Source of the DNA: a virus
Taxonomy: Duplodnaviria; Heunggongvirae; Uroviricota; Caudoviricetes
Strand: one strand, 5' to 3'
Virus record (IMG/VR): IMGVR_UViG_3300047470_000520
Length of the DNA stretch: 64,000 nt
Made by a program: the position numbers and the translations under genes. Under the pieces are notes generated by a model that worked only from the letters and a program-made list of their open reading frames with translations, ran no database searches and was not told the DNA's origin. Below are positions 34,030-50,005 of the stretch, piece by piece (the stretch's first letter is position 1; each line of letters starts with the position of its first letter).

Positions 34030-34147
34030 TCCTTAGTCACTGACGAAAAACAGAGCGTAAGAGCGCGGGGGGAAAGCTTGTTTGGCTACAAAAACAAAGG
34101 CTTTTTCTCTTCGCTCTCTCGTATGTGATGCTGGCCCGGAGGCCCCT

Positions 34148-34408
34148 ATGATCATTGAAAACGTGTTGGAAAAACGGGTGGCGACTGACCGTTGCCAGTG
34201 GATGGAAAACGGCAAAGTCTTCATGATTGAAGAGCTGTCTCGCGAAGATCTGATGCAGGTGGCGGCCCAGGCGCTGGCGCTGATCACTCGCACTGAAAAC
34301 CGCGTCCTGACTCTGTGCGCTGATCTTGATTCGTGGAACAAGGGTGAGCCCATTGCCCTTGAGCCTGAGCCAGCGACGGGCGACCATCTGTGGGATTTGA
34401 GGGCTTGA
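34148..34408 (+). CDS. Small acidic hypothetical protein (86 aa)
   Basis: ATG with a GGAGG RBS 6 nt upstream. The ORF 34082-34408 extends upstream without an RBS. Confidence 0.5.
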   Translation: MIIENVLEKRVATDRCQWMENGKVFMIEELSREDLMQVAAQALALITRTENRVLTLCADLDSWNKGEPIALEPEPATGDHLWDLRA

Positions 34409-34497
34409 TAGCCCCAAGACTTAAAGCGCGCCATGGCACGCTTTAACGGACTTAATACGCCCCGTAGCGCGCCTTATCCCTCTTGCAGGATGCCAAC

Positions 34498-35013
34498 ATG
34501 CTCAAAAAACTTAACTCCTTCGACATGCTGAAATCCATTAACGCCGGCATCGCCCTGCATAACGTGGATCAGGCACTGACGACCAGTCTGTATTCGGCAG
34601 AAGACTATTTCGCGGCAGGGTACTGCGAGCTGAAGATGGCGGAAGGCGCTGCGATCATCGAGGCCTTGCCGATTCGTGATCAGAAGCTGATCCGTCACTT
34701 GGCCGAGCGAACGCTTGAAGGCGATAAACACGGCTTCATGATGGCCCTGAAGCCTGGGCCTCAGATCGTGCTGGAAGAGAACGGATCGTCGCGTCGACTG
34801 GTCAGTACGGACTTTCAAGTGATAGCAGAAATCAACGGCAGCGGGTATGATGCGCCCTGCATTATCCAACTGTCCGATGGCTTCAAAGTATCCGGTCAAA
34901 CGCTGCTGGCTCATGCTGAAGTCAATGGCGAGCAACGCTATTTGATCAAACAGCGTACCCCGGTTGAAATGATTTGCTGCGCCATCGGCCTGATCAAAGA
35001 AAGGCTCTGGTGA
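34498..35013 (+). CDS. Hypothetical protein (171 aa)
   Basis: ORF with plausible codon usage. No recognisable domain. The alternative start at 34483 is only 5 codons upstream. Confidence 0.5.
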   Translation: MLKKLNSFDMLKSINAGIALHNVDQALTTSLYSAEDYFAAGYCELKMAEGAAIIEALPIRDQKLIRHLAERTLEGDKHGFMMALKPGPQIVLEENGSSRRLVSTDFQVIAEINGSGYDAPCIIQLSDGFKVSGQTLLAHAEVNGEQRYLIKQRTPVEMICCAIGLIKERLW

Positions 35014-35035
35014 TCCCAGGCCTTTAAGGGCCGAC

Positions 35036-35533
35036 ATGAATTTGCTGCACACGCTGTTAGGGTTTCCTGAATTAACAGATATTGACATTCAGCTTGGGGC
35101 TGCCATCGACGATGAGCCGGCTCCCGAGCTGAAGGCGTTGTACCTCCAATTGATGGTGGGTTTTCAGCTCATCAGCGAGCGCAACAACTACCCTGGCTAT
35201 GCCTTGATCGGTAATGAAGGCGTAGAGGACGGCGAGCTTCGATTGGTGTTGGAGCGCGAACACGCCGCAATTTCTGCCGCAAAAAGGTCGCATGGTTATT
35301 GGCGCACCGCTGTTCTGGCTGCGCAACAAAAAGCCAGGCGGTACGCTGTAATCCTCAAGGGCCGTCTGAAATGGATTGAGGCAATTGATCCTATTTTGTT
35401 CAGCGCCATGGAAAATAGTGGCAAGCCATTGTGCAATCGGGATTGCGGTCACCTGTTGGTTCATTTCAATATGGAACAAGAAGTCAAACGGCCTCTGTCG
35501 AAAGTACAGACGGCTCAAGACTGGCCTGCGTAG
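35036..35533 (+). CDS. Hypothetical protein, paralog of 35547-36176
   Basis: Shares YWRT...RL.WIEAIDPILFSAMENS with FRWLQRIDPVLYTAMAVAME in the next gene. Confidence 0.55.
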   Translation: MNLLHTLLGFPELTDIDIQLGAAIDDEPAPELKALYLQLMVGFQLISERNNYPGYALIGNEGVEDGELRLVLEREHAAISAAKRSHGYWRTAVLAAQQKARRYAVILKGRLKWIEAIDPILFSAMENSGKPLCNRDCGHLLVHFNMEQEVKRPLSKVQTAQDWPA

Positions 35534-35546
35534 GGGAGAATAGGCC

Positions 35547-36176
35547 TTGGGAATTATGCACAGCGACTTGATTGAACAAGCTCTTGAGCAGTTGGGCCCG
35601 CCCTTGACGGTGGAGCCTGAAATTCTGCATTACAAGGCCTATACCCAGGTGATCCGTGGCCTGTCGATGCACGTCACGGGCGACACCGAAATGGCGCTGA
35701 TGACGCTGTCACGGTTCATTGATAAGGGGCCGCCGATCCTTGTCCCCGATGAGTTGGAGGAGGCATCCGCCGCCCACTTCTACTGGAGGACGACGATCAT
35801 TCGGATGTACGTCATCGCCAACCAGGTCAGTCCCATCAATCAGCAGAACTTTCGCTGGCTGCAGAGAATTGACCCGGTGCTGTACACCGCGATGGCCGTT
35901 GCCATGGAGGCCCTCAAACCACACGTCTCCTGCTTTCGCCTGATGCATCACTACGGCCTGGAGGTTGGTCAGGAGCGGCCAATTCGGTTCGAGTCGCTTG
36001 AGGAATCGCTCCAGCGAACGCCGTATGAGAAACAAATTGCGCAGCACCTTAAAAACAAGGCAGATGAAGAGAAGGCGAAGGCACCACCAATGCCCGTTCC
36101 TACCGAGATACCGCCCAGCGGTCTCCATCTGCTGTTCAATAAATTGATCGCCGCAGTGCGAAACCGTAAGAACTAA
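35547..36176 (+). CDS. Hypothetical protein, paralog of 35036-35533, Lys/Glu-rich C-terminus
   Basis: See above. GGGAGA lies upstream. Confidence 0.55.
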   Translation: MGIMHSDLIEQALEQLGPPLTVEPEILHYKAYTQVIRGLSMHVTGDTEMALMTLSRFIDKGPPILVPDELEEASAAHFYWRTTIIRMYVIANQVSPINQQNFRWLQRIDPVLYTAMAVAMEALKPHVSCFRLMHHYGLEVGQERPIRFESLEESLQRTPYEKQIAQHLKNKADEEKAKAPPMPVPTEIPPSGLHLLFNKLIAAVRNRKN

Positions 36177-36184
36177 GGAAATCC

Positions 36185-36658
36185 ATGATGGATGCAACAA
36201 AACAAGGCTGGGTCGACAAAACCCATGAAGCGATTTTGAGCGTCGAGCGCTACCTCGGCATCAAAGGTGACAGTGATCGCGTCAGAGATTTCTCGACCCT
36301 GGCCAACTGGATCTATGGCGCTGAAGCCAACCCCCATGCATTTATGCCTTCAGGCTGGGAAAGCGTTAAAGACTCCGCGCAATCGTTCGCAGCCTTTCTC
36401 CAGACACTGCACCACTCGATGCTGGACGATGGCAGTCTGATCTTCCTGGAGGTTCAAGGTGGCCCGAGCTTCATGATCCTGAATGTCGATGATGACAACA
36501 CGGCCACGATTCAGGAGATTTTCGAGAAGCGCTCCAGTTGGCCTTATGACCGGCCATATGAAGTGCATCATGACGTGGCCAGGTTCATCAAGCAGTCGAA
36601 CTGGTACGGCAACAAAGGTACTGTTACCCAGGCTGATCCAGAAGTCGAAACGGCCTGA
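36185..36658 (+). CDS. Hypothetical protein (157 aa)
   Basis: AAGGAAA RBS then ATG. No recognisable domain. Confidence 0.55.
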   Translation: MMDATKQGWVDKTHEAILSVERYLGIKGDSDRVRDFSTLANWIYGAEANPHAFMPSGWESVKDSAQSFAAFLQTLHHSMLDDGSLIFLEVQGGPSFMILNVDDDNTATIQEIFEKRSSWPYDRPYEVHHDVARFIKQSNWYGNKGTVTQADPEVETA

Positions 36659-36755
36659 GGTTGACCAGGAAAGGATTGGAGGGGTTTCCCCGTTGATTGC
36701 CTCTCCGATCCGTCCCTATACTGGCTGAAAGGACGGTTAACAGCGGAGTTTTTCG

Positions 36756-37604
36756 ATGACCAGCAACGTGCCAGCACCAGCAGCAAAAACCATTTATGAC
36801 GATCTTGATCCAACTCAGGATTTGTCCAGGGTCAATGGCGACCCCATTTTTGGGTTCTACCCAAAACCTGAAGCAAAGACAAAGTCATTTCTGCTTGAAT
36901 TTGCAAAGGCGCCTGAGCATTGGAAGAGCAGTGAGGCTCACTCAACAGTCCCTTATCCAGAATTTGACCGGGCGATCACATCTGCCGATATCGAGAACCT
37001 GACAAAAGCCGCTGCAAGCCAGGAAGTATTCGCGAGCTCGCCAAGATTATCGGCTGCAGTGATGGGTTCCACCAAGGCATTTACCGAGATTACCAAGCAG
37101 GAATTCGCCAAGGCTCACATTGAAGCCATTCAACAGCCTCAGTGCGCTGGTTTTTTCGCCGTTGTGGCAATGGGGCGTGTGCTCAAGGATCTTAGCCAGT
37201 CATTTGGCCATAACAGCATTACGTCGCCAGGCAATTTTGCTGCGCGCACTGCACATCCTGAATTATTGACGCAAATCGGGCTGTTGGCTTCGGTTGCCTA
37301 TAACCTTAAGGTTGCGAATCCGAGTGATTTTCTGATGTCAGCGCAGTTCTTCCGGGCAAACGAATGGGAAAAGGCCCCGCTGACTGCTGAAGAAGTTCTG
37401 GCAATCCCGTTTGTCCTTGGCGAGCTGGCTGAAGTCTACGCCGAAGTTGAGCATGACCTGGGGCGCCATGCTGAATCGTGCGCCAAAAAGCTCGAGAGCG
37501 CCGGCTACCATGATGTGGCTGCGTACATCCACAAGGATTTAGCGCTCAAGGCTGAAGCTTCCAAGCCACAGCGCAAGCACGAAGATCCTGGCCTGGGCAT
37601 GTAA
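36756..37604 (+). CDS. LGL-tail family 3 protein (282 aa; tail …EDPGLGM)
   Basis: Shares blocks EF.KA.IEAIQQPQ..GFFA and PLT.EE..AIPF..G...E.YAEVEH..G.HA..CA.K....G with the other family-3 genes. Followed by a terminator. Confidence 0.8.
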   Translation: MTSNVPAPAAKTIYDDLDPTQDLSRVNGDPIFGFYPKPEAKTKSFLLEFAKAPEHWKSSEAHSTVPYPEFDRAITSADIENLTKAAASQEVFASSPRLSAAVMGSTKAFTEITKQEFAKAHIEAIQQPQCAGFFAVVAMGRVLKDLSQSFGHNSITSPGNFAARTAHPELLTQIGLLASVAYNLKVANPSDFLMSAQFFRANEWEKAPLTAEEVLAIPFVLGELAEVYAEVEHDLGRHAESCAKKLESAGYHDVAAYIHKDLALKAEASKPQRKHEDPGLGM

Positions 37605-37621
37605 ACCGCGCAACTCGAAGC

Positions 37622-37660
37622 AAAAAAGGCGAAACCATCACTGGCTTCGCCTTTTTCGCA
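37622..37660 (+). terminator. Rho-independent terminator (type A, identical copy at 38766)
   Basis: AAAAAGGCGAA-accatcactgg-CTTCGCCTTTTT. Confidence 0.75.
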
Positions 37661-37699
37661 TCTGCGCTTTTCCCATCAGTGATTGTTTAGTCTCGCGCT

Positions 37700-37737
37700 C
37701 TCTCACTACACTGTTGGGAGAGCCAGGAGATTTTTGC
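37700..37737 (+). promoter_or_regulatory. Conserved family-3 5' leader/promoter region (TACACT … AGCCAGGAGATTTTTGC-ATG)
   Basis: Near-identical to 42580-42609 and 43898-43937 over the RBS and first codons (AAGGAGATTTTTGCATGACCGA). Confidence 0.5.
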
Positions 37738-38748
37738 ATGACCGATTTAAAAAATGAGCCACAAGGCGAGCCAAACCCACGATCAAAGCTCGAGGAAAAC
37801 CTGTCTAATCAACAAGAAGACATGGAGCTCGGTCGTACGGATACCCTTGGGAATAAACTTCACAAGAACGGCTTGATAAGCACTCTTGCAGATAAGGCGA
37901 AGCCTTTCTTTGAAAAATTGTTCAATCCCAAACCAAATGCTGAAGTCGAAGCCAAACAAAGAGGCATTTTTTATGGATTCGATACCACCATGAATCACCC
38001 CAATGCGAATGGAGAGCCGTTCTTCGGTCTGTACCTCAGAGCTAGCAAATATACCCATAACCCTTTTTCCGAACCTTTACGCTATGAGTACCCTGCTGCC
38101 GATTCAGAATACGCGGGTACACCGCTGCTTTATCTGCACAAGATCGACGAATCAGATCTAGATGCCATGAGAGCGAGTCTGAATAACCCTGGCTTTAGCA
38201 TGTTCTCAGAAAAAAATCTGAAGGCCATTTTGAATTCGCTGTCCGACACAACTCCGATCACCCGCAAGGAGTTCGTCAGCGCGTTCGTGGATGCCATCCA
38301 AACGCCACAGGCTGCGACCTTTATGGCAGCAGCGGCTCTTTCGCTCACTGCGCCAAAGTCCGAATACAACGGGTTGAGCTTTTATGAGCCTGTGCGCAGC
38401 ATCTATACGGAGCGCGATTGGCTTTCTCAGATGGCTACCGGGTCAACGTTTGGTAACTATGCCATGGAATTCGTGCCATCGGCTCAGATTTTCAGAGTGG
38501 ATGAGTTCGCTAAAAATCCACTGACAGAAGATGAGATCAAAGCGATCCCGGCGCTCACTGGCTTTTATGCCGAGGCCTATGAAGAAGCGGGTCAAGATCA
38601 CAGTGCTCATGCGCTCAGCGTGACTAACAAGTTGCGAGAGGCAGGCTTCCCCGAAGTAGCCGCTGAGATCGCCAAGCTGAATGGCATCGAAATCAAGGTG
38701 GAAAAGCGCTCCACGCCGATAAGCTATGATGGCGGCCTGGGGCTTTAA
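37738..38748 (+). CDS. LGL-tail family 3 protein (336 aa; tail …YDGGLGL)
   Basis: Start at the conserved ATGACCGA (MTDLKNEP). Blocks KEFVSAFVDAIQTPQAATFMAAAALSL and PLTEDEIKAIPALTGFYAEAYEEAGQDHSAHA. Confidence 0.8.
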   Translation: MTDLKNEPQGEPNPRSKLEENLSNQQEDMELGRTDTLGNKLHKNGLISTLADKAKPFFEKLFNPKPNAEVEAKQRGIFYGFDTTMNHPNANGEPFFGLYLRASKYTHNPFSEPLRYEYPAADSEYAGTPLLYLHKIDESDLDAMRASLNNPGFSMFSEKNLKAILNSLSDTTPITRKEFVSAFVDAIQTPQAATFMAAAALSLTAPKSEYNGLSFYEPVRSIYTERDWLSQMATGSTFGNYAMEFVPSAQIFRVDEFAKNPLTEDEIKAIPALTGFYAEAYEEAGQDHSAHALSVTNKLREAGFPEVAAEIAKLNGIEIKVEKRSTPISYDGGLGL

Positions 38749-38765
38749 GCCTCCACCACTCCTAG

Positions 38766-38805
38766 CAAAAAAGGCGAAGCCATCACTGGCTTCGCCTTTT
38801 TCGCA
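38766..38805 (+). terminator. Rho-independent terminator (type A)
   Basis: Same hairpin sequence as 37622-37660. Confidence 0.75.
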
Positions 38806-38990
38806 TCTACGCTCGCCACCCGCTGAGGCATAAGAGGGGAATCGCTACACGGTAGCCATTGGCTCTGGAGTCTTCCCCCTAGCACGTCCATCACAAGCCA
38901 GCCTGGTGCCAGTGGAGCACTGGTTCAGCAGGCCGAACAGCGTGGCGCTGTAGACCTCTCTACATTACCACCGCAGCCTGTCAGCTTCAA

Positions 38991-39731
38991 TCAGGCGCCA
39001 ATAGCCTCTGGCGCCTGGGTCATGCGCAGGTTCACATTCTTGGTGCGGGTCTGATCTTTCTCAATGATGCTGTCGATGATCTCGGACACCGATTGCTTGA
39101 TGTTTTTGTAGTCACGCACTTCTGACTCACTGATCTTGACGACGACGTCCAGCGAAAGGTCTTCGTCGGCGTAGCCCATCATGCAGTTTCTGGCGTCCTG
39201 TACGCCATCGGACAGGTAGCAGTAGATGGCCATGTCGGTGTTGCCCTTTTTGTCGGGCTTAAGATAAAAATCGACGCGATCTGGATGCCCTTCAGATGAC
39301 CGGCCACGCACGTAGGTCAGGCCGTTTTCGACAACCACTTTGGGAAACGGCGTGCTTTTGGCGTCCTGGTAATTCTTTGGGTTGTAGAGGGACTTTAGCG
39401 TGGTCTTGATTGGCAGGTTGAAGCTGGAGGAAATAGGCTTCAGGGTGATGGAGAAATTGTGAGCCCTTTCGATGGCGCCAGACATGCTGTCGGCATTTTC
39501 TATGTAGGATGTTGAAGCCTGGATCTGAAGGGTATTGGGCTCATCGCCACAGGTGATGGCGTTGATGCTTGGGTTTTGACCGTCATCGGAGGGCATAAAA
39601 CGGTCAGGCAATTTGATGTGGAGCTCGCTGACCATGGGGCACGCTGCGCCCTGGGTTTGGGAAGCCATCAGCTTTTCGGAGACGGGTATCGTGAAGAATA
39701 AAAGAGCAGAAAAAATATTGGAAAATTTCAT
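38991..39731 (-). CDS. Secreted/periplasmic hypothetical protein (signal peptide)
   Basis: N-terminal MKFSNIFSALLFFTIPVS... has a hydrophobic core. 246 aa. Confidence 0.6.
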   Translation of the reverse strand: MKFSNIFSALLFFTIPVSEKLMASQTQGAACPMVSELHIKLPDRFMPSDDGQNPSINAITCGDEPNTLQIQASTSYIENADSMSGAIERAHNFSITLKPISSSFNLPIKTTLKSLYNPKNYQDAKSTPFPKVVVENGLTYVRGRSSEGHPDRVDFYLKPDKKGNTDMAIYCYLSDGVQDARNCMMGYADEDLSLDVVVKISESEVRDYKNIKQSVSEIIDSIIEKDQTRTKNVNLRMTQAPEAIGA

Positions 39732-39916
39732 GATAAATGGCAGCGACGAGTAAAGAGGCCGCGCATGGTAGCCACCAAAGCACTTTTTTTCAATTATTTT
39801 TGAACTTATTGCGGGAATGCGAATCGGAGTCAGGTTTTTCCTGATGGCAGGCTTCAGGGAATCCCTTCAATTGGCCAGGTCTCCCCCGCTATAATGCCTG
39901 AAATTGGAGGCTTACC

Positions 39917-40558
39917 GTGGATCGAGCAGAAATCGTCAAGCAGAGAGTGCTCAAGAACTCTGGCGTTGGTAGCCGGTACGAAACGCTTGCGCTGAATTCA
40001 AGAATGCAAATTGACGTGGCCATCACCATCATTTGCTGCGGCTTTGAGCAGGCAGGGGTGAAGCACCTGGAGACTCGAAGTAGTCTAGGGTATTACGTTT
40101 TTCATGGCCTTCTGGATGAACCAAACCTGACGAAGGAAGACATTATTCATAAATTGTCTGATATTCACCTCAAGACATCCCCTTTCATGAGCGTTTCCCA
40201 ATATTGCTCAATGTTGACCACGACCCTGTATGCGCTGAGGAAGTACGACTACAAGGTTGAGCCCTTCATCCGGCAAGTATGGTCGGATACGCTGAGGACT
40301 TCGGAGGACGACAATGTTAAAAAGCTCTTGGGCGTGGGCCCTGGATCGGGTCGGCGTATGTCTGATGGCGATGACGTCACTCAGGGGCTGATCCTCAAGG
40401 TGTTGCTCGAGCAGGACGGTGGCAAGGCACACATCATCAAGCACTTCACCAAGCCGACACTCGGCAAGATGGTTTTGAAGCACAGTTTGAGTGGTTTCGA
40501 AGGGGTGATCAGCCGAAAAGATGCGGGTTCGCTGCTGTCTGATCAATTGGGCCTGTGA
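39917..40558 (+). CDS. LGL-tail family 4 protein (213 aa; tail …RKDAGSLLSDQLGL)
   Basis: GTG start with GGAGG 6 nt upstream. Paralog of the next gene. Confidence 0.7.
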   Translation: MDRAEIVKQRVLKNSGVGSRYETLALNSRMQIDVAITIICCGFEQAGVKHLETRSSLGYYVFHGLLDEPNLTKEDIIHKLSDIHLKTSPFMSVSQYCSMLTTTLYALRKYDYKVEPFIRQVWSDTLRTSEDDNVKKLLGVGPGSGRRMSDGDDVTQGLILKVLLEQDGGKAHIIKHFTKPTLGKMVLKHSLSGFEGVISRKDAGSLLSDQLGL

Positions 40559-40598
40559 CCATCGATCCACGGATATACTGAGTAAAATTGGAGGAAAA

Positions 40599-41240
40599 AT
40601 GAATCACGAAGACCTGGTCAGAATGAACGTCATGAAGGAAGCTGGCGTAGATGGGCGATTTTCCTGGCTTGCCGAGTATGAGCAGCAAGAGCTGGATGCC
40701 GCGATTGCCATCGTGCGCCAGGGTTTTCAGCCCGAGTTGATTAGCGGCCTTTCGTCTCTCACTGAGCTGGGTGTTTACCTGCTGAGTGCCCTTGAAACGG
40801 ATCATGATCGCCCCCGCGAAGACATTTTTTACAGATTGGCAGAGACGCATGTCGAGTGCTCAAAATCGCTGGACATGTCGAGCTACTACCAAATGCTGGG
40901 GGCGACGGTTAAACGCTTCAAGGATGACAAGTCGGACGTAAGGCTATTCGTTCATGGCTTGTGGGCAATCACCGTAGAGCGGCTTGATGCCTCCGGAGTC
41001 CTGAAGCTTATTGGCGTGGCCCCAGAAATCACCCACAACAAGATCGGTACTGAAATCTTCGCCCAAGGTGCCATCCTGCGGTTCTTCACCGAGATGCCCG
41101 GTCACAAGGAATTTCTGATCAAGCACGTTCCACAACACACGCTGGGCAAGCTCGTACGCAAGTATGAACTGGAGGGCCTGGAAGGCGCTATCAGCCGTAA
41201 AGACGCCGGGCATCTACTGTCTGATCGATTAGGTCTTTGA
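40599..41240 (+). CDS. LGL-tail family 4 protein (213 aa; tail …RKDAGHLLSDRLGL)
   Basis: ATG with a GGAGGA RBS. Shared blocks with 39917-40558 (KLLGVGP/LIGVAPE, LEGVISRKDAG). Confidence 0.75.
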   Translation: MNHEDLVRMNVMKEAGVDGRFSWLAEYEQQELDAAIAIVRQGFQPELISGLSSLTELGVYLLSALETDHDRPREDIFYRLAETHVECSKSLDMSSYYQMLGATVKRFKDDKSDVRLFVHGLWAITVERLDASGVLKLIGVAPEITHNKIGTEIFAQGAILRFFTEMPGHKEFLIKHVPQHTLGKLVRKYELEGLEGAISRKDAGHLLSDRLGL

Positions 41241-41270
41241 GCCCCCACAACGCCTTACAGGAGCTTTCGC

Positions 41271-42500
41271 ATGCTGTTAGTTTTTGAGTTTGAATCTGCC
41301 GAGTGCCTAAGCGACTTCCTGGGCGTTGCTGCTCATGGCGATACCGAGAAGAACGAAGAACTGGAGTACTGCATTAACCGCGAGCGCGCCGTTGAGATCC
41401 TGGCCTGCCGTGAGTTAAAGATCCCCTACGTGGTGGTGTCTAAGGTCTTGAGCTTCGAGAAAGGCACCAAGCCGGTGACGATCATCGACACCAACACCGA
41501 CGTGACACGAATGACCTTGGCCAGCGCTGTAGTCTGGCGGGTGTCATCGACAAGAATCAAACATCCAGACCTGGATAATTTCCCGCGCTACATCTCAGGG
41601 GCCAGTGAGTATGGCGTAAAACACTGGCCAGAGAACCTTAAAAACCCAGACCACTTCCTCAAGCGCACTGTCGTGGAGCTGAGCAAGGCCAGGTTCAACG
41701 AGATGATGGGCGCAGGGGATATTCACCCTCCGGTGTTCATCAAGGGGGTGGAGAAGGGTAGTGGCTTTAGCCTTCATCATGTCGTGAAGACCGAGGATGA
41801 CCTTCACGCGCTCATCAAGCCGGCTGGAGAGCTAAAAGCTCTGTTTGGGCACAAAATGCTTTTCGACCAAAGCGTTAAGGACAGTGACTTCATGGCCTTC
41901 TTCCAGATGCCCGAGTGGTATTGTCCGTACCGGGACAGCATGGAGCCTGGCCGGCTGTGCCTGTTCGACCCGGAAGAGGGGGTAATGCTCTCCGACGCCC
42001 TGGAATTTGAAAGGCATCCTGAGCACAAGGGCGAGTTCCGAGGATTCATTGTCGACGGCAAGGTCACCAGCCTCTCGTCGTACACGGACTACGAAAGCTA
42101 TCCGGTGCCAGAGGCGATTCAAACGCTGGCCGAAGAGTTTGCTCAGCAGAATAAACATCTGGCGTCGGCCTATGTGGCGGACTTTGGCATGACGGATCGC
42201 GGCCCGGTGCTGGTAGAGCTCAACAGCCTCAAGCATTCCGGCAGATACGTCGGTAACGACCCCCAGGCGCTGTTACAGGCGATTGAGCAACACATTGGTG
42301 TCGTTGACCGTCGCTTCATCTGTGAACCGCTGGTGGCGGTGCCAGAGGCGAAGGTTAGTCAGGATATTGAGCTAGGGATCGGCTCGGGTCGACTCTTTGA
42401 TCCGCGTGATGAGCAGGGGCTGGTGTCAGTCGATGTCGATGAGTTGCCTGGCTTGAGGCTACGGCCTGGACTGGGTGATGCGGAGCCGAGTATCGATTGA
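41271..42500 (+). CDS. ATP-grasp superfamily protein (ligase-like), unknown substrate
   Basis: C-terminal half has an ATP-grasp pattern: PPVFIKGVEKGSGFSLHHV (Lys-containing ATP-binding strand), EFRGFIVDGKV, and YVADFGMTDRGPVLVELNSLKHSG (the ExN motif). AGGAG RBS. Confidence 0.65.
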   Translation: MLLVFEFESAECLSDFLGVAAHGDTEKNEELEYCINRERAVEILACRELKIPYVVVSKVLSFEKGTKPVTIIDTNTDVTRMTLASAVVWRVSSTRIKHPDLDNFPRYISGASEYGVKHWPENLKNPDHFLKRTVVELSKARFNEMMGAGDIHPPVFIKGVEKGSGFSLHHVVKTEDDLHALIKPAGELKALFGHKMLFDQSVKDSDFMAFFQMPEWYCPYRDSMEPGRLCLFDPEEGVMLSDALEFERHPEHKGEFRGFIVDGKVTSLSSYTDYESYPVPEAIQTLAEEFAQQNKHLASAYVADFGMTDRGPVLVELNSLKHSGRYVGNDPQALLQAIEQHIGVVDRRFICEPLVAVPEAKVSQDIELGIGSGRLFDPRDEQGLVSVDVDELPGLRLRPGLGDAEPSID

Positions 42501-42515
42501 CGATTTACACCACAA

Positions 42516-42548
42516 CAAACCCGCTGTGACAGGCGGGTTTTTGTTGTC
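42516..42548 (+). terminator. Rho-independent terminator
   Basis: AAACCCGC-tgtgacag-GCGGGTTTTTGTTG. Confidence 0.65.
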
Positions 42549-42579
42549 TTGCGGTTGTCTATGTTCTCGCTCGCTCCCT

Positions 42580-42609
42580 ATACTCAATCAAGACCAAGGA
42601 GATTTTTGC
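42580..42609 (+). promoter_or_regulatory. Conserved family-3 5' leader/promoter region (CCTATACT…AAGACCAAGGAGATTTTTGC)
   Basis: Matches 43898-43937 at about 36/40 positions. The -10-like TATACT lies about 16 nt upstream of the ATG. Confidence 0.5.
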
Positions 42610-43755
42610 ATGACCGAGTACAAAACCAAGCATCCAGGCAAGCTGGCTCTCGACTTCCTGCGAGGGTCTAAGCTTCACGCTAGTTTGGACGCTGCCACCG
42701 ATAGCGGTGAAATCAATGATGTTTTGGTCAGTGCAAAGCATCTCGTTGCGCTGATGAAGACCGGTGAGAATGAAAGCTTTTGGAAAAAAGAGTTGCAGAC
42801 TGCTCCTCAAGATCTTCCTTTATTGGCCACACTGCTGACAGCAATTGATGAAGATCGTCTTGATGCAGCTGGTTCCAAAGCTCTTAGGGCTTTGACTAAA
42901 ACCATTATCGGGGTAACTCTCCCATCGATGGGCAATCAATTTAATGGCCTTTCATTGCCAGAGATTCCGCCTAACAGCATTTACAGCGGGAAGAACCCTG
43001 CAACATCAAATCTTTTGGATGGAGAGCCGGCTGAATTTGGAATCTACCCTGAAGAGCAGCCTTATAATTCAGTGGTGTCTGCGTTCTTTATTAAGAATCG
43101 CAAATACATCACGGATCAGAAACGGACTAACAATCCAGATCCGGTACTTGAAGTGCCCATCACTAAAAAAGATTTGATTGGATTAGAATTTGATGCAGTC
43201 AGCGGTGACTATCAGATGTTTTCCGCAAAGCCGATCAAATGCATTATGGCTTCGCCTAATGCTTTCTCAGAAGTTTCTAGGAAGGAGTTTGTTTCGGCTT
43301 ACCTAAAAGCAGCTGAACAACCACAGACTGTTGGTTTTTTTGCAATGACTGCTCTGACTAGCGTATATGCAAAAAATATTATGGAAACTAATAATTTTGA
43401 GCATCAAGATGAAGAAATGAAGAAGCGTGGGCTTTTCATTGACCGGATTTACAACCTTAAATCTGATTCCTTTCGCGGGAATTTCATGTTCTCTGCGAAG
43501 GAGTTCACTGTCAACGAGTTTGCGCAAAAACCACTGACAGTTGAAGAGATCAAGGCGATCCCTTTCTTGACCGGTCTGTATAATGAGATTTATGCCGAGG
43601 TGGAGCACAATCATGGCGTTCATGCACAAGCATGCGCGGACAAGATGAGGTCTGCCGGTCACGACATCCTGGCTGAAGCCATCGAGCTCAATATTCCGGC
43701 CAAGGCGTCAAAGCCGGTGCGCAAGCACGACGACGATCTGAGCCCCGGCATGTGA
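42610..43755 (+). CDS. LGL-tail family 3 protein (381 aa; tail …DDDLSPGM)
   Basis: Start MTEYKTKHPGK at the conserved leader. Close paralog of 43938-45071. Confidence 0.8.
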   Translation: MTEYKTKHPGKLALDFLRGSKLHASLDAATDSGEINDVLVSAKHLVALMKTGENESFWKKELQTAPQDLPLLATLLTAIDEDRLDAAGSKALRALTKTIIGVTLPSMGNQFNGLSLPEIPPNSIYSGKNPATSNLLDGEPAEFGIYPEEQPYNSVVSAFFIKNRKYITDQKRTNNPDPVLEVPITKKDLIGLEFDAVSGDYQMFSAKPIKCIMASPNAFSEVSRKEFVSAYLKAAEQPQTVGFFAMTALTSVYAKNIMETNNFEHQDEEMKKRGLFIDRIYNLKSDSFRGNFMFSAKEFTVNEFAQKPLTVEEIKAIPFLTGLYNEIYAEVEHNHGVHAQACADKMRSAGHDILAEAIELNIPAKASKPVRKHDDDLSPGM

Positions 43756-43771
43756 TTTAGTCACTGAAACG

Positions 43772-43797
43772 AAAACGCGCTTCGGCGCGTTTTTTGT
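43772..43797 (+). terminator. Rho-independent terminator (type B, copy at 45086)
   Basis: AAACGCGC-ttcg-GCGCGTTTTTTG. Confidence 0.8.
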
Positions 43798-43897
43798 TGA
43801 GGGTGCGTACGGCAAGACCCTCAGCGCTGGCTCTATAATTCTAAGGTATCGCGGGCCCAACGAGCGTTGAATGCCTTGTTGATTGCCTGGCTAATAG

Positions 43898-43937
43898 CTC
43901 AATTCCTATACTGGGTAAAGACCAAGGAGATTTTTGC
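43898..43937 (+). promoter_or_regulatory. Conserved family-3 5' leader/promoter region
   Basis: Same leader as 42580-42609. Confidence 0.5.
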
Positions 43938-45071
43938 ATGACCGAGTTAAAAACCAAGCATCGCGGTGAGCCAGCCCTCAACTTCCTGAGAGCGCCAGAC
44001 CTTCCTGAGCGCATCGATGCGGCCATCAAAGATGGTTCAATCGGCAATATCATGGAGAGCGCCAAGTTCCTGGCTGTGCTGATTTCCGTGGGCGAAAACT
44101 CCGACTACTGGAAAAAAGAGCTTAGTGTTACGCCCGATGACCTTCGCCTCCTGCAGAAGCTGACAGAAATTGATGGCGGCAGTCTGGACATCTTCGGGCA
44201 GAAAACCCTCAAGGTCTTGATCGACACAATTATTTCTCAGTCGATGATCTTTGTTGACCGAATTTTCCCTGAAGATCATAACAAGCCGATCATTTCGAAA
44301 GATAGTATTTATGAATACAGCAACAGGACGGCACCACGCGTGAGCGGGGAACCTGATGAATTTGGCATCTATGAAAAAGGTCAGCCTTACGACTCTGTGC
44401 TCACTCGCTATCTCCATGAGTACAAAGATTTCATTAAAAAAAATAAAAACACCAATGCACCGTTACCTTTGTTTGAAAAAGCGCTGATAGGAAATGATGT
44501 TCTTGCCTTGGATCTTGATGCCATTAGTGGTAACTATGAAATGTTCACCGTAAGGCCACTGAAGGCCTTAATGGATTCCCCAAAGGCTTTCTCAATCATC
44601 TCAAAACAAGCCTTCGCACAAAGATATATTGATGCAGTCGAGCAGCCAAAGGCGCTTGGCATGTTTGTTTTAATGGCGATCACTACAGCGTATTCTATCC
44701 GCACTAAAAGTACTGAATATCCAGAAAACAAAGAGGTCTATGATCAACAATCGCCTCTGATTGATAGGCTCTGTGGGATGGGAAGCTCCTTTCGCGGGAA
44801 CTTCTTATTATCTGCAAAAGAATTCACCATTAATGAATTTGCATCAAATCCATTAACGGTCGATGAATTAAAAGCCATTCCTTACTTGTTGGGCTTTCAC
44901 AAAGAAGTCTATGCCGAGGTTAAGCACAATCACGGTGTACACGCCCAAGCATGCGCAGCCAAAATGAGGGCGGCGGGTCATGATGTCGTGGCTGATGCCA
45001 TAGAGCTCAACAACCCGGACAAGGCCGTCAAACCAGTGCGTAAGCACGACGACCTGAGCCCAGGAATGTAA
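43938..45071 (+). CDS. LGL-tail family 3 protein (377 aa; tail …HDDLSPGM)
   Basis: Start MTELKTKHRGE. Paralog of 42610-43755. Confidence 0.8.
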   Translation: MTELKTKHRGEPALNFLRAPDLPERIDAAIKDGSIGNIMESAKFLAVLISVGENSDYWKKELSVTPDDLRLLQKLTEIDGGSLDIFGQKTLKVLIDTIISQSMIFVDRIFPEDHNKPIISKDSIYEYSNRTAPRVSGEPDEFGIYEKGQPYDSVLTRYLHEYKDFIKKNKNTNAPLPLFEKALIGNDVLALDLDAISGNYEMFTVRPLKALMDSPKAFSIISKQAFAQRYIDAVEQPKALGMFVLMAITTAYSIRTKSTEYPENKEVYDQQSPLIDRLCGMGSSFRGNFLLSAKEFTINEFASNPLTVDELKAIPYLLGFHKEVYAEVKHNHGVHAQACAAKMRAAGHDVVADAIELNNPDKAVKPVRKHDDLSPGM

Positions 45072-45085
45072 TTCAGTCGCTCAAA

Positions 45086-45112
45086 GAAAAACGCGCTTCG
45101 GCGCGTTTTTTC
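45086..45112 (+). terminator. Rho-independent terminator (type B)
   Basis: AAACGCGC-ttcg-GCGCGTTTTTTCG. Confidence 0.8.
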
Positions 45113-45140
45113 GTTGTAGCTCGGTAGTGAATCACGGGCC

Positions 45141-45767
45141 TTATTTGCCCATTTCAAGCCGATTTTTGAAGTCACGAATGATGATCGCCATAGCCCCTTC
45201 TTCCTCAAGCAATGTCCAGCGAGGAACGCCTTCTTCAGGCTCGCCGTAATAATCCATGTGCGTGGCCAGCCAGCCGATGAGCATGTTCACCTGGGGGATG
45301 TCAGAGGTGTCGATACCCAAGGCCCTTACGAGATTGCCGACGCCAGGCTTGACCTTGTTTTGGTGAAACTGAAAGGCGGGGAAGTATTTGCGGCGATCCT
45401 TGGTGTACGCCAGCAGCTCACCGGATTTAGTCTTTAAGCTCAGCGCTTGCTTGGTGATGCCGAGGATGGTGCAGACATCGTTGGATTTAATCAGCTCATA
45501 AGCGGCTGCAACGGAAACAAAAGCCCTGTCTTTCATCAAGGCGAAGGCCAGTTCATTGCGGGTTTTGACACTCAGCGGTTTTGGCGGCTTGTCGCGCTTC
45601 TCAACGATCATGGCCAGGGCGGCGTCATCGTCCAGGAGCATCGCCTCCAGCACCATGAAGCGTGGAAGCGAATCGACCTTCTGGATGAACTTGAGCACCA
45701 GCGAGGCTTTGGCCTCTTCCAGTGCTTGATTTTGACTGCCTTCGTTCTCGGCGCTTTCGATGCTCAT
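45141..45767 (-). CDS. Hypothetical protein with predicted helix-turn-helix
   Basis: Start at MSIESAENEG, with GAGGAG 7 nt upstream. The HTH-like segment is NDVCTILGITKQALSLKTKSGELLAY. Confidence 0.6.
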   Translation of the reverse strand: MSIESAENEGSQNQALEEAKASLVLKFIQKVDSLPRFMVLEAMLLDDDAALAMIVEKRDKPPKPLSVKTRNELAFALMKDRAFVSVAAAYELIKSNDVCTILGITKQALSLKTKSGELLAYTKDRRKYFPAFQFHQNKVKPGVGNLVRALGIDTSDIPQVNMLIGWLATHMDYYGEPEEGVPRWTLLEEEGAMAIIIRDFKNRLEMGK

Positions 45768-45829
45768 ACTGCTCCTCGCTGGCCCAAAAGTGAGCCAGTG
45801 AGGCCATGCTAGCAATGAATATTTATTCG

Positions 45830-45856
45830 AGTCAAGTAGTCAAGTAGTCAAGTTGT
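45830..45856. repeat. Tandem 8-bp direct repeat (TCAAGTAG x2 + TCAAGTTG)
   Basis: gagTCAAGTAGTCAAGTAGTCAAGTTGtca, located about 65-90 nt upstream of the HTH gene start. Confidence 0.7.
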
Positions 45857-45859
45857 CAT

Positions 45860-46282
45860 TCAGGCAAGGTAATCGGTTCCGGGTATCAGCCGGCGCCCGC
45901 GACCTTGTCCGATGAAGGTGTGATACAGCGTTGTCACCTCAAAAACGGCACGATCCTGCTTGATCTCGGTGGTCGCCTCGACCTGCACCGGTTCATCAAA
46001 TATGCAGTTAGAGGCAAACTTGATTGACACCGAAAAAGGCCTGACAAAAAACCAGCCGCGCATGCCACTCAGGGTGACCGTGTAGGTCATAAGACCTTGG
46101 CGTTCGACAGCCGGATCCTGCCGAATGTCGTACGAGACCTTAAAGCGTGCGTTGATCACGCCGGCTTGCTTGATCACATCGCGAATCAGGTCATGCAGGT
46201 CTTCGAATTCCATCGCGCCACTGACTTGGTCGCGGAAGAATTTCCGCAGACGCTTCTCGCTGTACAGACCTTTAAAAAACAT
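45860..46282 (-). CDS. Hypothetical protein (140 aa)
   Basis: Start MFFKGLYS with GGAGG 6 nt upstream. The longer ORF to 46315 lacks an RBS. Confidence 0.55.
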   Translation of the reverse strand: MFFKGLYSEKRLRKFFRDQVSGAMEFEDLHDLIRDVIKQAGVINARFKVSYDIRQDPAVERQGLMTYTVTLSGMRGWFFVRPFSVSIKFASNCIFDEPVQVEATTEIKQDRAVFEVTTLYHTFIGQGRGRRLIPGTDYLA

Positions 46283-46337
46283 TGTGTCACCTCCAGTGAC
46301 ATTGGAGCCCGACAATCAGGCTCCGTAAGCATAGTCG

Positions 46338-46730
46338 TTAGGCTGCCTTCAGCTCTTCGATCAGCTTGCCGTGGAACGGGATGTTTTCACGTGGCTCGAA
46401 GGTCGTGTAGCTCACGTACTGGCCCTTGTAGTGCATCAGCAGACAGAACTGCTCATCACAGGCCGCTGGGTAAGCGCGTTTGTCCGGCGCCATCAAATCC
46501 ACCTGGACTTCGTCATTGCTGATCGAATTGAGGATCCCGTCACGGGTGTAGATCACGCGATGAATCTGGCGATCCTTGAGGTAGACGTGGAAGGTTTCGC
46601 GCTCACAGGTGAAGCCATACAGCAGGGTACGATCCTGGTCAGGGTTATTCAGCTCATCAACATGGATACGCTGCACTTCTTTAGACTTTTGCATCAGCTC
46701 CCGGAGCTTGTTGTAGGCATCGATGTTCAT
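46338..46730 (-). CDS. Hypothetical protein (130 aa)
   Basis: ORF with an AGGAATACCCTCATG start context on the minus strand. No recognisable domain. Confidence 0.5.
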   Translation of the reverse strand: MNIDAYNKLRELMQKSKEVQRIHVDELNNPDQDRTLLYGFTCERETFHVYLKDRQIHRVIYTRDGILNSISNDEVQVDLMAPDKRAYPAACDEQFCLLMHYKGQYVSYTTFEPRENIPFHGKLIEELKAA

Positions 46731-46943
46731 GAGGGTATTCCTTGTCTTGAGTGGTGATCAGCATAACCCTATTAGGGTATTCTGTAAACATACCGATTGG
46801 TATTTTTACACCCGCAAAAAATTTAACCGAAGATCTTGAAATTACTTTTGTCAATATTTTAAAATTATTTTGTCACGGCCTATCGGCGTGATGCGCAGGC
46901 CTTCGGGGTGCGTTTACCACAGTCGCTCAATGAGGACGAAATC

Positions 46944-47372
46944 ATGAGACACGCAACACTCGCTTATCTGATCAACAGCAACCTGGCTTTTGGCACCGAT
47001 TACATGGCCCGCCAGATCGCCAGCGCACGCGCTGACCTGAAGGCTATCCCATACCCGCCTACTGACATCCTGATGCACGGCGACAACGACTTCGAGATTC
47101 AGATGGCCTTGGCCGGCTACGATGAAAACAACATCGATGTCTCGGTGGAAGGCAAGGAGATGACCATCTCGGGTAAACCGACCGGCCAGCCGGAAGGGAC
47201 TCAATACTATGCCAGGGGGATCTCACGTAAAGACTTCAAGCAAACGCTGCAGTTTGCCCACCCCGTGGAAGTGTCGGAAGCGACCTTCAAGCAAGGCATG
47301 TTGATCGTCAGAGTCAAAGCGATCATCCCTGACGCCGAGAAGCCGCGCACCATTAAGGTCAACGCTGCTTAA
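46944..47372 (+). CDS. ibpA: Small heat-shock protein, Hsp20/alpha-crystallin family (IbpA-like)
   Basis: PYPPTDILMHGDNDFEIQMALAGYDENNIDVSVEG...ISGK...YYARGISRKDFKQT...IIPDAEKPRTIKV aligns to the IbpA/IbpB core and the C-terminal I-x-I/V motif region. Confidence 0.85.
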   Translation: MRHATLAYLINSNLAFGTDYMARQIASARADLKAIPYPPTDILMHGDNDFEIQMALAGYDENNIDVSVEGKEMTISGKPTGQPEGTQYYARGISRKDFKQTLQFAHPVEVSEATFKQGMLIVRVKAIIPDAEKPRTIKVNAA

Positions 47373-47388
47373 AGCTGGTCGAGGAACG

Positions 47389-47415
47389 AGGCCCCGCTCT
47401 GCGGGGTCTTTTTGT
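47389..47415 (+). terminator. Rho-independent terminator after sHSP gene
   Basis: GGCCCCGC-tct-GCGGGGTC followed by TTTTTGTTTG. Confidence 0.7.
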
Positions 47416-47518
47416 TTGCCAGCAAAAAACAACGCAAAGCTGGAAAGCAAAAGCAGGTTGGTCAGGCAGGAAAGTCTGTTGGGAAGGAAGCCACTTTGAG
47501 CGTATTACCAGACGCTCT

Positions 47519-47776
47519 CTAGCGATCAGGCTGACGCCCACGCAATCCTTCGTTCCACATGGCCTTGATGTTCTTGCCAGCGCCCACGGTGAGTACCGTA
47601 GCCCTGCAATCCTCACAGGCGACACTCACCATCAGTGGCGAGACCAAGATCCTGGCGTGACCGCCACAGAGGCATTTATTAATCCCAGAGCGAGCGCACT
47701 CATCACATCGCCACACGGAATCAGGAAGATCTGAATCCCCGCCGTGTTGGCGGCATAGCTTGCCGGTGGCGCCCAT
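47519..47776 (-). CDS. Cys-rich hypothetical protein (possible zinc ribbon)
   Basis: Contains CDEC...CLC...CEDC cysteine pairs. No family is recognised. Confidence 0.35.
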   Translation of the reverse strand: MGATGKLCRQHGGDSDLPDSVWRCDECARSGINKCLCGGHARILVSPLMVSVACEDCRATVLTVGAGKNIKAMWNEGLRGRQPDR

Positions 47777-47848
47777 GGAAAAGCCTCAGGTTGGTCAAGA
47801 AGGGAATGGTGTAGGTTTACGGCAAGGCACTGCCAGTAAGTACCCGAT

Positions 47849-48049
47849 TTATTTCTTCGCCGCTGACAACGCAAGCCGCACCAGACACACCTGTTTAACC
47901 TCGATCTTCTTCTCGCTGGAATACTGGTTCCAGTCCCTGACCTCGGCCACCGTGCGCCCACAGCCCGTGCAAACGTCTCCGCCCACATTATGTGAGCAGA
48001 TCCCTCGGCAAGGGCTTGAATCTGGCTTGTTGGGGCGTGAAATGCTCAT
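47849..48049 (-). CDS. DUF1289 family protein (YdhL-like)
   Basis: SPCRGICSHNVGGDVCTGCGRTVAEVRDWN matches the DUF1289 SPC.G.C.....G.C.GC.R...E...W signature of E. coli YdhL. Confidence 0.75.
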   Translation of the reverse strand: MSISRPNKPDSSPCRGICSHNVGGDVCTGCGRTVAEVRDWNQYSSEKKIEVKQVCLVRLALSAAKK

Positions 48050-48416
48050 GACGGGTCAGTCTCGTGGTGGGTGCCAAACATATTACACAAATTGCCATTT
48101 TTTGCCTGCAAAAACAGGGCGGGTCTTTTTCCCTAGCGACAATCAAACTGCTCTTACCGGGAGATCTGACGTTTTACTTTGGCGAAGCGTGCGTTGATGG
48201 TGTCGGCGTCTTCCGAGCTGAGGTCTCGCGCAAACGAACTCACTGGCTTGTTCGACCGGTAGCGATCCAAGACCCTGGAGGTTAAATCTTTCTTTCTCCA
48301 GAAGCATAAAGCGGGGATTAAACCGATCATAAGTCCCCTTAAGGCGCGTGATACCTGATGAAAGGCTGAAGGTTGGTCAGGCAAAGGAGTTATTGGGGCA
48401 GGGCAAGGGCAGGCTA

Positions 48417-48782
48417 TCACTCCCCCCGATTGTTGTCCTTGAAGTCATGCTGCCAACGCTTGATCAGGATTCCCTTTGAATCGAAGTCAAAAAGGGTCGC
48501 TTGCGATCTCATGTCATCAATGGCCAAGGGGTTGGTACTGTAGCGCTTGAAGCTGTAGATCCACAGTTCATGGCCAGCTTTCTTTTGCTTGCGGGAGGGT
48601 TCGCCCAGAGCTGCCTTGATGGCAGATGAGGGGGTGCTGCCTGGAATAAAACTGCTGAACGTTGATTTGGAGACCTCAACCCCTTCCTGCTTGATAAAGA
48701 GATCCGCCATGTCCGAGGCACATCCGGTCATGAACAACGGGCAAGCAGCGAGCAAGAGCGCCAAACCAATCCGATTATTCAT
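48417..48782 (-). CDS. Lipoprotein, hypothetical
   Basis: Signal peptide with lipobox LFMTGC. 121 aa. Confidence 0.65.
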   Translation of the reverse strand: MNNRIGLALLLAACPLFMTGCASDMADLFIKQEGVEVSKSTFSSFIPGSTPSSAIKAALGEPSRKQKKAGHELWIYSFKRYSTNPLAIDDMRSQATLFDFDSKGILIKRWQHDFKDNNRGE

Positions 48783-49227
48783 GCCTTTTCTCCCGGCTTT
48801 TTTATGATATTGACACGAAAAGCTGGCTCAAAGTCAACAACCTAAATATTGGAGTGACGGAAGGGCTGGGTGAAGATGAAAAAGCCTTGAAATTTAAGGG
48901 GCAGTGGTAGGGCTGTTTTTTGATCACAACCTACCCCCCACCATTTTTGTTGATTGAGGCGGAAGAAAAACAAAGGCAGAAACGAAGGGCATGGTAGAGA
49001 TTTTAAGGTGGTAGAGAGGCAATGGTAGAGAAGCGAAAAGCAGGTTGTACAGGATGGGAGAATTGTAGGATTTTCTTCGAAAATCCAAAATGAGGTCGTC
49101 GCTGCGCGCCGGAAGGCATTAAAGATCGTACAGGCCTGGCGAGCCGTACTGGCGTGTGGCTCGGGCCTTGAAAGCGATCTTAAAATGCCAACAGCCTGGT
49201 ATTTTGAGGCCAAGTTGTTGCCAGGCA

Positions 49228-49797
49228 CTATAGGCCCAGCGAGTCCTCAAGGAGCTTTCCCTTGATCTGTTTTGCAAGGCGACTTGGAAGGTAGCTAGTA
49301 GCTTTAATGCCGAACACATCAACAAACGCAGCGCCGGCCTTTTCGTCAGTTATTAACGCCGAAATCCGCTCCGCGCCTCTGTGCTGCAGGAGCTTTTTGA
49401 TTTCTTTGGTAGTGGCTTCGTCCTCTGGGCTATAAGTTGGCTCCCTGTACGCCGAAAACCAGATCTCATCAGCAATGAAAGGTAGCGACAGCTCGACACC
49501 GTAGGCTTCAAGGAAGAACTTGGCGCGCCCAGTGCCATGCACTTCTTTGGCTGTGTTGGTGATGTCTGTTTCCGATAGCCATATCCGATGCAAAGCGTAG
49601 GTTGGGTGCCATGGGGCTGCTCTCATACCGCGCACAAAAATCTCGTCGATGCCTATGTTCTCGTCGCGTTTATATTCGCCAGCGGCAATGCATCGGCGAA
49701 CATATAAATATTTGTCTTCGGTCGATAGCGCGTCGTAAAGAACAGGCGAGTCGTGAACTTTTTTGAAAGTTCGGTCAAAAGGATTCTTGGTATCCAT
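49228..49797 (-). CDS. LGL-tail family 2 protein (~189 aa)
   Basis: ATG at 49797. The longer ORF to 49830 begins with TTG. Motifs ...AKFFLEAYGVELSLPFIADEIWFSAY...AFVDVFGIKATSYLPSRLAKQIKGKLLEDSLGL. Confidence 0.8.
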   Translation of the reverse strand: MDTKNPFDRTFKKVHDSPVLYDALSTEDKYLYVRRCIAAGEYKRDENIGIDEIFVRGMRAAPWHPTYALHRIWLSETDITNTAKEVHGTGRAKFFLEAYGVELSLPFIADEIWFSAYREPTYSPEDEATTKEIKKLLQHRGAERISALITDEKAGAAFVDVFGIKATSYLPSRLAKQIKGKLLEDSLGL

Positions 49798-49888
49798 GTT
49801 CGCACATGCCTTTAAATTGGTTTTCTTCAATTTTAACCGAGGAGCTTAAAGTGGCGCATGTGCTTAATGTTTCCAGGCCAGCAACAGA

Positions 49889-49990
49889 TCAGAGGCCAAG
49901 CTGAACCTCAAGGTGCCCGCCTTTTCTTGTGCGGCGATATGTCTGTGTAGGTGCCGATTGTAGGATTCTAGCTCTTGCTGGCGCAAGAAA
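49889..49990 (-). pseudogene. Decayed 3' fragment of a family-2 gene (…RKGGHLEVQLGL*) plus conserved 3'-flank motif
   Basis: Minus-strand translation gives ...TYRRTRKGGHLEVQLGL* with no upstream start or full ORF. The 3' flank 49842-49872 matches the 3' flank of gene 52387 (52340-52370). Confidence 0.55.
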
Positions 49991-50005
49991 GCTGGCCGAC
50001 GACCA

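Follow-up and report, generated by a model that had tools for sequence, protein, structure and literature searches.

The 64,000-nucleotide (nt) stretch of DNA analyzed here (IMG/VR record IMGVR_UViG_3300047470_000520; the whole stretch is referred to below as the window) contains an ATP-grasp gene that is surrounded by genes whose products share a C-terminal tail, ...LGL-COOH. The gene is an open reading frame (ORF) of 409 amino acids with an ATG start, located on the plus strand at 41271-42500, exactly as it was first described. An initial annotation had proposed that it encodes a dedicated ligase, which acts on, or is primed by, the ...LGL-COOH ends. We found no support for this proposal: the enzyme and the tails are dissociated from each other, in both directions, and the tail hypothesis is thereby weakened. 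The explanation that we favor, with confidence moderately above even, is that the protein is an intact R2K amidoligase, encoded in the backbone of megaplasmids that bear Dot/Icm-like systems, that it acts on a protein or peptide and is not a dedicated writer of LGL tails, and that the tail itself serves as a recognition signal.

Dissociation of the Enzyme and the LGL Tails

In the window, 48 ORFs end in the 12-residue module L-[KR]-G-x-hydrophobic-L-E-[DE]-x-L-G-L, for example LKGALLEDALGL. The synonymous codons of the module vary among these ORFs, which indicates that the tail is kept by selection at the protein level. The terminal leucine is itself genetically encoded, with varied codons, and therefore no ligase is needed to create it.

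For the census of tails on other replicons, we used a looser, three-residue pattern and took the internal frequency of this pattern as the expectation; the counts refer to samples of the replicons only. By this measure, 45 of the 83 window ORFs (54%) are tailed, versus 0.97 expected. Tails are also frequent in the 75-kb sample of pMPPla107 (15/87 ORFs) and in the 25-kb sample of pBASL58 (8/25). The initial annotation had named genomic co-occurrence as a test of its proposal. The 125-kb sample of the Vibrio vulnificus FORC_036 plasmid has only 4 tailed ORFs out of 138 (1.5 expected), a chance level, with no C-terminal positional bias, and the locus L013 has none among 24; another locus, L016, has a single tailed ORF out of 17. 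The orthologs of the Vibrio plasmids and of L013 are full-length: the Vibrio protein aligns over residues 1-338, with the invariant residues of the N-terminal domain retained, and the L013 protein is 40% identical to the window enzyme.

The reverse case, tails without the enzyme, is found in the 1.17-Mb plasmid pPL1 of Pseudomonas silesiensis (locus L021, NZ_CP143488.1, 129022-169516; the record is unannotated in PLSDB). This locus has the syntenic block, with a DUF808 gene at 58% identity, a pair of DotM_C-like genes, and genes homologous to those of the 246-residue and the 121-residue protein, along with four tandem paralogs of ~520-580 amino acids ending in ..KDLGL, and genes ending in ..DLSPGF. 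No ATP-grasp homolog was found anywhere on the plasmid: a PLSDB search with the ATP-grasp protein matched seven records at E<=1e-3, none of them pPL1, and this search recovered 30%-identical orthologs at 1e-32.

The location of the gene among tail-bearing genes, which had been taken as a hint of function, is real; within the window, however, it is no more than expected by chance, because 54% of the ORFs there are tailed, and the adjacency is thus uninformative. In addition, genes of the family that flanks the enzyme on its 3' side (family 3) flank it only in the window and in a 75%-identical relative (L007), and one ortholog (L009) has no tail-bearing neighbor at all. Adjacency to tail genes is, judging by these loci, lineage-specific.

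An ATP-Grasp Ligase of the R2K Clade

Two Pfam models of the R2K clade match the protein above their cut-offs: R2K_2 (PF18299; E=3.8e-11, 43.5 bits versus 26.2) and R2K_3 (PF14243/DUF4343; E=4.5e-11, 43.7 bits versus 26.3). Both matches cover residues 252-338 only, and the same domains are precomputed for all 23 homologs. In alignments of 24 homologs, K158, K162, E255, R257, D304, E316, and N318 are invariant.

Except for D304, these residues fall in the three motifs that had been singled out as ATP-grasp hallmarks, and all three motifs are present and genuine. The first, PPVFIKGVEKGSGF (residues 153-166; 41727-41768, plus strand), is the ATP-binding strand and loop and includes both lysines, which are invariant in the alignments (A1, A2). 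K158 lies in the strand (155-159 in the structural model), and K162 lies in the loop that follows (FIK158GVEK162GSG). The second is the strand EFRGFIVDGKV (residues 255-265; 42033-42065, plus strand) with the invariant E255 and R257. The third, VLVELNSLKHSG (residues 313-324; 42207-42242), is part of the Mg/ATP site (42177-42242, plus strand), which consists of ADFG (D304) and VELN (E316-x-N318), followed by an invariant SGRY. Thus, the protein has the features by which the ATP-grasp superfamily is recognized, namely, the three-domain fold, the phosphate-binding lysine, and the D...E-x-N magnesium triad (K158, D304, E316, N318).

The R2K clade is defined by a second conserved lysine or arginine, in the loop after the lysine strand of the RAGNYA domain, and is predicted to modify proteins; in one of its families, R2K.3, ExGD replaces ExN in the last strand (Burroughs, Zhang and Aravind 2015, PMC4431377). 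The window enzyme has the two-lysine signature and the ExN site. R2K.3 in the sense of that paper is ruled out because the Mg site reads VELN, not ExGD; the placement among the remaining R2K sub-families is ambiguous because the R2K_2 and R2K_3 models score equally. Like other members of the clade, the protein is sporadically distributed and found on mobile elements, with distant relatives in jumbo phages. It differs in that the window group has its own conserved N-terminal domain of ~130 residues and a variable, disordered C-terminal extension. We conclude that the gene encodes a genuine, probably active ATP-grasp ligase of the R2K group and that, by its sequence, the protein is a new member of a rare sub-family within a known, biochemically uncharacterized clade. 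To our knowledge, substrates have not been established for any member of R2K.2 or R2K.3.

The RimK models of Pfam and NCBIfam gave no match at E<=0.1, NCBIfam returned only sub-threshold matches to D-Ala-D-Lac ligases, and a profile search of PDB sequences returned only a marginal match to Ddl (E=0.1). PADLOC gave no match for the enzyme or its neighbors, and the sole match in PHROGs was phrog_7313, of unknown function. We found no description in the literature of the LGL tail or of the ATP-grasp protein on pMPPla107-type plasmids.

Predicted Structure and Comparison with Known Enzymes

An AlphaFold2 (AF2) model built from the 24-sequence alignment has a mean predicted local distance difference test score (pLDDT) of 82.6 and a predicted template modeling score of 0.79. 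Residues 1-361 are ordered, whereas residues 362-409 have pLDDT of 31-39. The closest solved folds include LysX/ArgX with the LysW tail, and RimK; together with the membership in the R2K clade, this supports the proposed kinship to ligases that act on protein tails. With LysX/ArgX (PDB 3vpb, 5k2m), the identity is only 12-13%; neither a LysW-type carrier nor lysine/arginine biosynthesis genes were found across the window and 12 related contexts, and the family-4 protein encoded next to the window enzyme is an alpha-solenoid rather than a zinc-ribbon carrier. With RimK (PDB 5zct, 5zk6, 7qys, 4iwx), the identity is 8-14%, and the RAGNYA loop of the window enzyme is of the R2K type. RimK is the poly-glutamate ligase of ribosomal protein S6, and its substrates end in glutamate, not in the hydrophobic LGL. 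Tubulin tyrosine ligase (TTL) and the TTL-like enzymes (TTLL), which attach amino acids to the C-terminal tails of their protein substrates, also have the ATP-grasp fold.

The initial annotation had described an N-terminal extension of ~150 residues. The region exists, but as a strongly conserved alpha/beta domain of the family itself rather than as an addition to it (residues ~1-130; 41271-41660, plus strand), outside the Pfam match at 252-338. In the model, it has strands at 2-7, 53-57, 71-74, and 87-90, and helices at 10-22 and 31-49, mostly with pLDDT above 85. Residues E29, C34, R37, E38, E42, R47, P52, and Y53 are kept even in the 29%-identical Vibrio homolog, and N75 is also invariant in the homolog alignment. 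Judging by its topology, this would be the family's own pre-ATP-grasp domain on the substrate side. The charged residues of the domain are invariant in tail-rich and tail-poor lineages alike, which speaks for a substrate that these lineages share.

At the other end is a disordered acidic extension of 48 residues (362-409; 42354-42497, plus strand) that ends in ..PGLGDAEPSID and has 11 D/E versus 4 K/R. The ends of family members vary by clade, in both length and motif, after a variable disordered linker: among 48 members, 13 end in ..Phi(x)D (the clade of the window protein), 9 in ..[LI]G, 7 in ..L[ETAG]P, 1 in the canonical ..STLGI, and 18 in other ways; some proteins (P0016, P0030, P0046) have no extension. 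The ..LG ends resemble the LGL tail minus its last residue. The idea that the enzyme itself is tail-bearing was rejected, since only 1 of 48 members has a canonical tail and the window protein has none; we keep it as a weak rival.

A Backbone Gene of Large Plasmids

The identical protein is encoded on a JGI metagenome contig of 303,896 bp. Homologs are rare: 23, at 30-75% identity, were found in 5.8 billion clusters, and full-length matches occur in only ~29 clusters among 1.84 billion representatives. The homologs reside on replicons of ~0.9-1 Mb, namely, pMPPla107, pBASL58, a plasmid of Pseudomonas sp. FeN3W, four Vibrio plasmids, and two metagenomic contigs (0.95 and 1.06 Mb). A profile scan of genome contigs yielded three distant Clostridia-type relatives, which matched over no more than the C-terminal half or at 24% identity and had no tails close to them. 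In the lineage of the window, the gene order DUF808 - DotM_C-like x2 - ~160 amino acids - ~240 amino acids (minus strand) - (family 4) - ATP-grasp - ... - HSP20 - DUF1289 is conserved. By this synteny, the ATP-grasp gene is a backbone gene of pMPPla107-like, ~1-Mb megaplasmids of the Pseudomonas type. A megablast search of positions 30000-49000 against PLSDB found no match, and there are no tRNA genes in the window.

Both pMPPla107 and pBASL58 are typed MPF_I. The former has a Dot/Icm-like type IV secretion system, for which the published work names no effectors and leaves open whether any are secreted (PMC3136466). A Vibrio plasmid with the ortholog also encodes DotI, DotG, IcmJ, and DotD. 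The ~0.9-Mb Vibrio plasmids (L014, FORC_036 at 329-350 kb; L019) are typed as 'non-mobilizable' and have DotI, DotG, IcmJ, DotD, and TraN. They also carry a type IVb pilus cluster and housekeeping-like genes (recA, ligA, smpB, lpxC, and NAD salvage); the ATP-grasp gene is common to them and the Pseudomonas megaplasmids, whereas the tail enrichment is absent from the Vibrio plasmids.

Local Context of the Gene

The ATP-grasp gene is placed, as had been described, between a pair of tail-bearing genes of family 4 and two genes of family 3. The former, on the plus strand at 39917-40558 and 40599-41240, end in ..SDQLGL and ..SDRLGL; the latter, at 42610-43755 and 43938-45071, end in ..DDLSPGM. The gap between the stop codon of the upstream family-4 gene and the ATP-grasp gene is 30 nt, and a Shine-Dalgarno-like caGGAG, read directly from the sequence, is located 7 nt 5' of the ATG (41258-41263, plus strand). 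Promoters and terminators were called as consensus matches. The best terminator-like hairpin of the region, of the intrinsic type (9-bp stem with 5 G-C pairs, 42517-42540; with the T-rich tract, 42517-42550, plus strand), starts 17 nt past the ATP-grasp stop, and a promoter-like site (42555-42584) follows the hairpin and precedes the next gene. Because of this arrangement, the ATP-grasp gene is probably co-transcribed with the family-4 pair. A mechanically called ORF (42475-43755) runs into the 3' end of the ATP-grasp gene; however, comparison with the paralog that starts at 43938 places the real start at the ATG near 42610, past the hairpin and the promoter-like site, which indicates that the two genes do not truly overlap.

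Possible Substrates

Under the explanation that we favor, the enzyme would bind Mg-ATP via K158, K162, E255, D304, E316, and N318, and a carboxylate of the substrate would be phosphorylated to an acyl-phosphate, to which an amine, probably an amino acid, would then be joined. The outcome would be a modification of the peptide type, on a protein or peptide that the plasmid family as a whole has conserved. A conserved protein or peptide of the plasmid or the host is the most likely substrate, and a metabolite is less likely. The enzyme would lie among tail genes only because over half of the window genes are tailed.

A first alternative, which we regard as unlikely, is that the enzyme is a cargo of the type IVB system and modifies a host protein in the recipient cell, to aid establishment of the plasmid. 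The gene belongs to the same backbone block as the DotM_C-like proteins, and the R2K literature proposes roles in effector and conflict systems, including Legionella effectors. The disordered acidic extension would suit such a role, as would the single ortholog with the canonical end and the 16 others with near-tail ends (..[LI]G or ..L[ETAG]P). However, the window protein ends in ..PSID, with no tail, the ends of 18 of the 48 members are unrelated, and some members lack the extension. That the C-terminal extension could serve the export of the enzyme itself is, at this point, a thin proposition.

It is rather doubtful that the enzyme ligates small molecules, in the making or repair of a metabolite or cofactor, and that its gene is one of the many housekeeping-like genes of the megaplasmids. 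No biosynthetic partner is conserved across the contexts, and the substrates predicted for the R2K clade are proteins (PMC4431377). A large conserved N-terminal domain combined with a long disordered tail would also be unusual for metabolite ligases. The initial annotation had stated that closest homologs that are small-molecule ligases in a conserved, unrelated operon context would speak against its proposal; no conserved biosynthetic operon of this kind was found across the contexts, and therefore a protein or peptide substrate stays plausible.

The proposal that the enzyme ligates amino acids onto the ...LGL-COOH ends or is primed by them, by analogy to RimK acting on S6 and TTL acting on tubulin, is improbable in light of the co-occurrence results, and so is its variant, in which the conserved Glu/Asp at tail positions -6 and -5 are modified. 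It draws support from the nearest folds, which include enzymes that act on C-terminal tails (the RimK-RpsF and ArgX/LysX-LysW complexes), and from the predicted preference of the R2K clade for proteins. Three further observations speak in its favor: the apparent co-transcription with the family-4 pair, the 9 of 48 family members that end like the tail without its last residue, and the presence of a tail gene directly upstream in 7 of the 12 contexts. It should be noted that the tail frequency is 17-54% on these elements and that the 12 contexts, being related by descent, do not count as independent cases. Moreover, in an AF2 model of the second family-4 protein (pLDDT 83.6), an alpha-helical solenoid, the tail lies within a packed terminal helix and does not form a free, flexible end.

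We give similarly little credence to a narrower version of the pairing, in which the substrate is the family-4 protein encoded just upstream, as in LysW-LysX or in precursor-ligase pairs of ribosomally synthesized and post-translationally modified peptides. The short gap, the common strand, and the terminator-like hairpin found only after the ATP-grasp gene are consistent with it. In the window and in L007, L015, and L018, a family-4 gene immediately precedes the ATP-grasp gene, and in L017 it is one gene further off. Family 4 is almost invariant over its last ~25 residues.

Finally, it is highly improbable that the enzyme edits tails to control export, by adding or restoring a residue on ...LG/...LGL-COOH or by glutamylating the acidic residues of the module; if this were true, the Dot/Icm-like coupling machinery would gain or lose its recognition of hundreds of megaplasmid proteins through such edits, in a bacterial counterpart of the tubulin tyrosination cycle, and the orthologs that end in ..LG would be self-substrates.

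The Tail as a Putative Secretion Signal

The initial annotation had invoked the ligase as the reason why the extreme C-terminus is so constrained. A role of the tail as a secretion signal, with the secretion coupling machinery or the DotM_C-like proteins nearby as its reader, would account for this constraint better, because recognition by a receptor would suffice to keep the extreme C-terminus invariant, with no ligase needed. The nearest known counterpart of the tails, though not of the enzyme, is the C-terminal translocation signal of Dot/Icm (type IVB) systems, together with the receptor domain of DotM. DotM of Legionella uses its cytoplasmic domain to bind acidic C-terminal signals of effectors, and a change of the C-terminal leucine to glutamate in the consensus signal abolishes transport (PMC5802825). 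The LGL tail resembles Dot/Icm signals in its position at the extreme C-terminus, in having acidic residues a few positions in, and in the hydrophobic residues at -3 and -1; in addition, the plasmid family encodes MPF_I/Dot-Icm-like systems, and DotM_C-like proteins are encoded nearby. There are also differences: the Legionella signals are loose and compositional, whereas the tail is a near-invariant 12-residue module ending in LGL, and the DotM_C-like proteins of the window are small, soluble, and distant from a secretion gene cluster.

The two DotM_C-like proteins, which resemble the cytoplasmic, effector-binding domain of DotM, are encoded on the plus strand at 35036-35533 (PF23127, E=1.6e-6, 28.9 bits versus a cut-off of 27) and 35547-36176 (PF23127, E=9.5e-4, below the cut-off), 5 kb upstream of the ATP-grasp gene and in the same conserved backbone block. 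The pair is kept in six related loci (L007, L009, L015, L017, L018, L021). These proteins, encoded far from any secretion gene cluster, are candidate readers, or adaptors, of LGL tails.

Other Features of the Window

In the window, diverged paralogs form two very large tandem arrays: ~32 genes of ~290 amino acids at 8-30123 (plus strand), and 12 genes of ~195 amino acids at 49228-56798 (minus strand). Nearly all of the array genes end in L[KR]Gx(Phi)LE[DE]xLGL, with a 4-nt overlap between stop and start codons in many cases. Representatives of the arrays had no match in Pfam, PHROGs, or PADLOC, and a tblastn search of PLSDB with one 290-residue array protein found no homolog.

Two adjoining genes are inserted inside the 290-residue array: an IS200/IS605-type Y1 transposase-like ORF (1409-1816, plus strand), the C-terminus of which matches a Pfam Y1_Tnp gene of L013, and a copy of KdsA (1868-2707, plus strand) that is at least 90% identical to chromosomal KdsA of Pseudomonas, as judged by membership in a 90%-identity cluster. 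This suggests that a host gene was captured recently, with a hint that the host is a Pseudomonas. Midway through the 290-residue array, on the opposite strand, is an ERCC4/XPF-type nuclease with helix-hairpin-helix motifs (12829-13482, minus strand; Pfam E=4e-28). An AAA ATPase of 692 residues (57835-59913, plus strand; Pfam AAA, E=8e-11) is encoded just past the 195-residue array and has a 658-residue counterpart in L017.

Implications

We know of no bacterial ATP-grasp enzyme of the R2K clade with a known substrate. A rare sub-family that conjugative megaplasmids of ~1 Mb carry as a fixed part of their backbone is a clean candidate for finding one. For the dozens of LGL paralogs in the window, the results imply that the tail needs no such ligase, and they direct attention to the type IVB system and the DotM_C-like readers. 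What is of interest in the window is the tails and their probable reader rather than the ATP-grasp gene. Should the tails act as translocation signals, the protein repertoire exported by pMPPla107-like plasmids would be very large.

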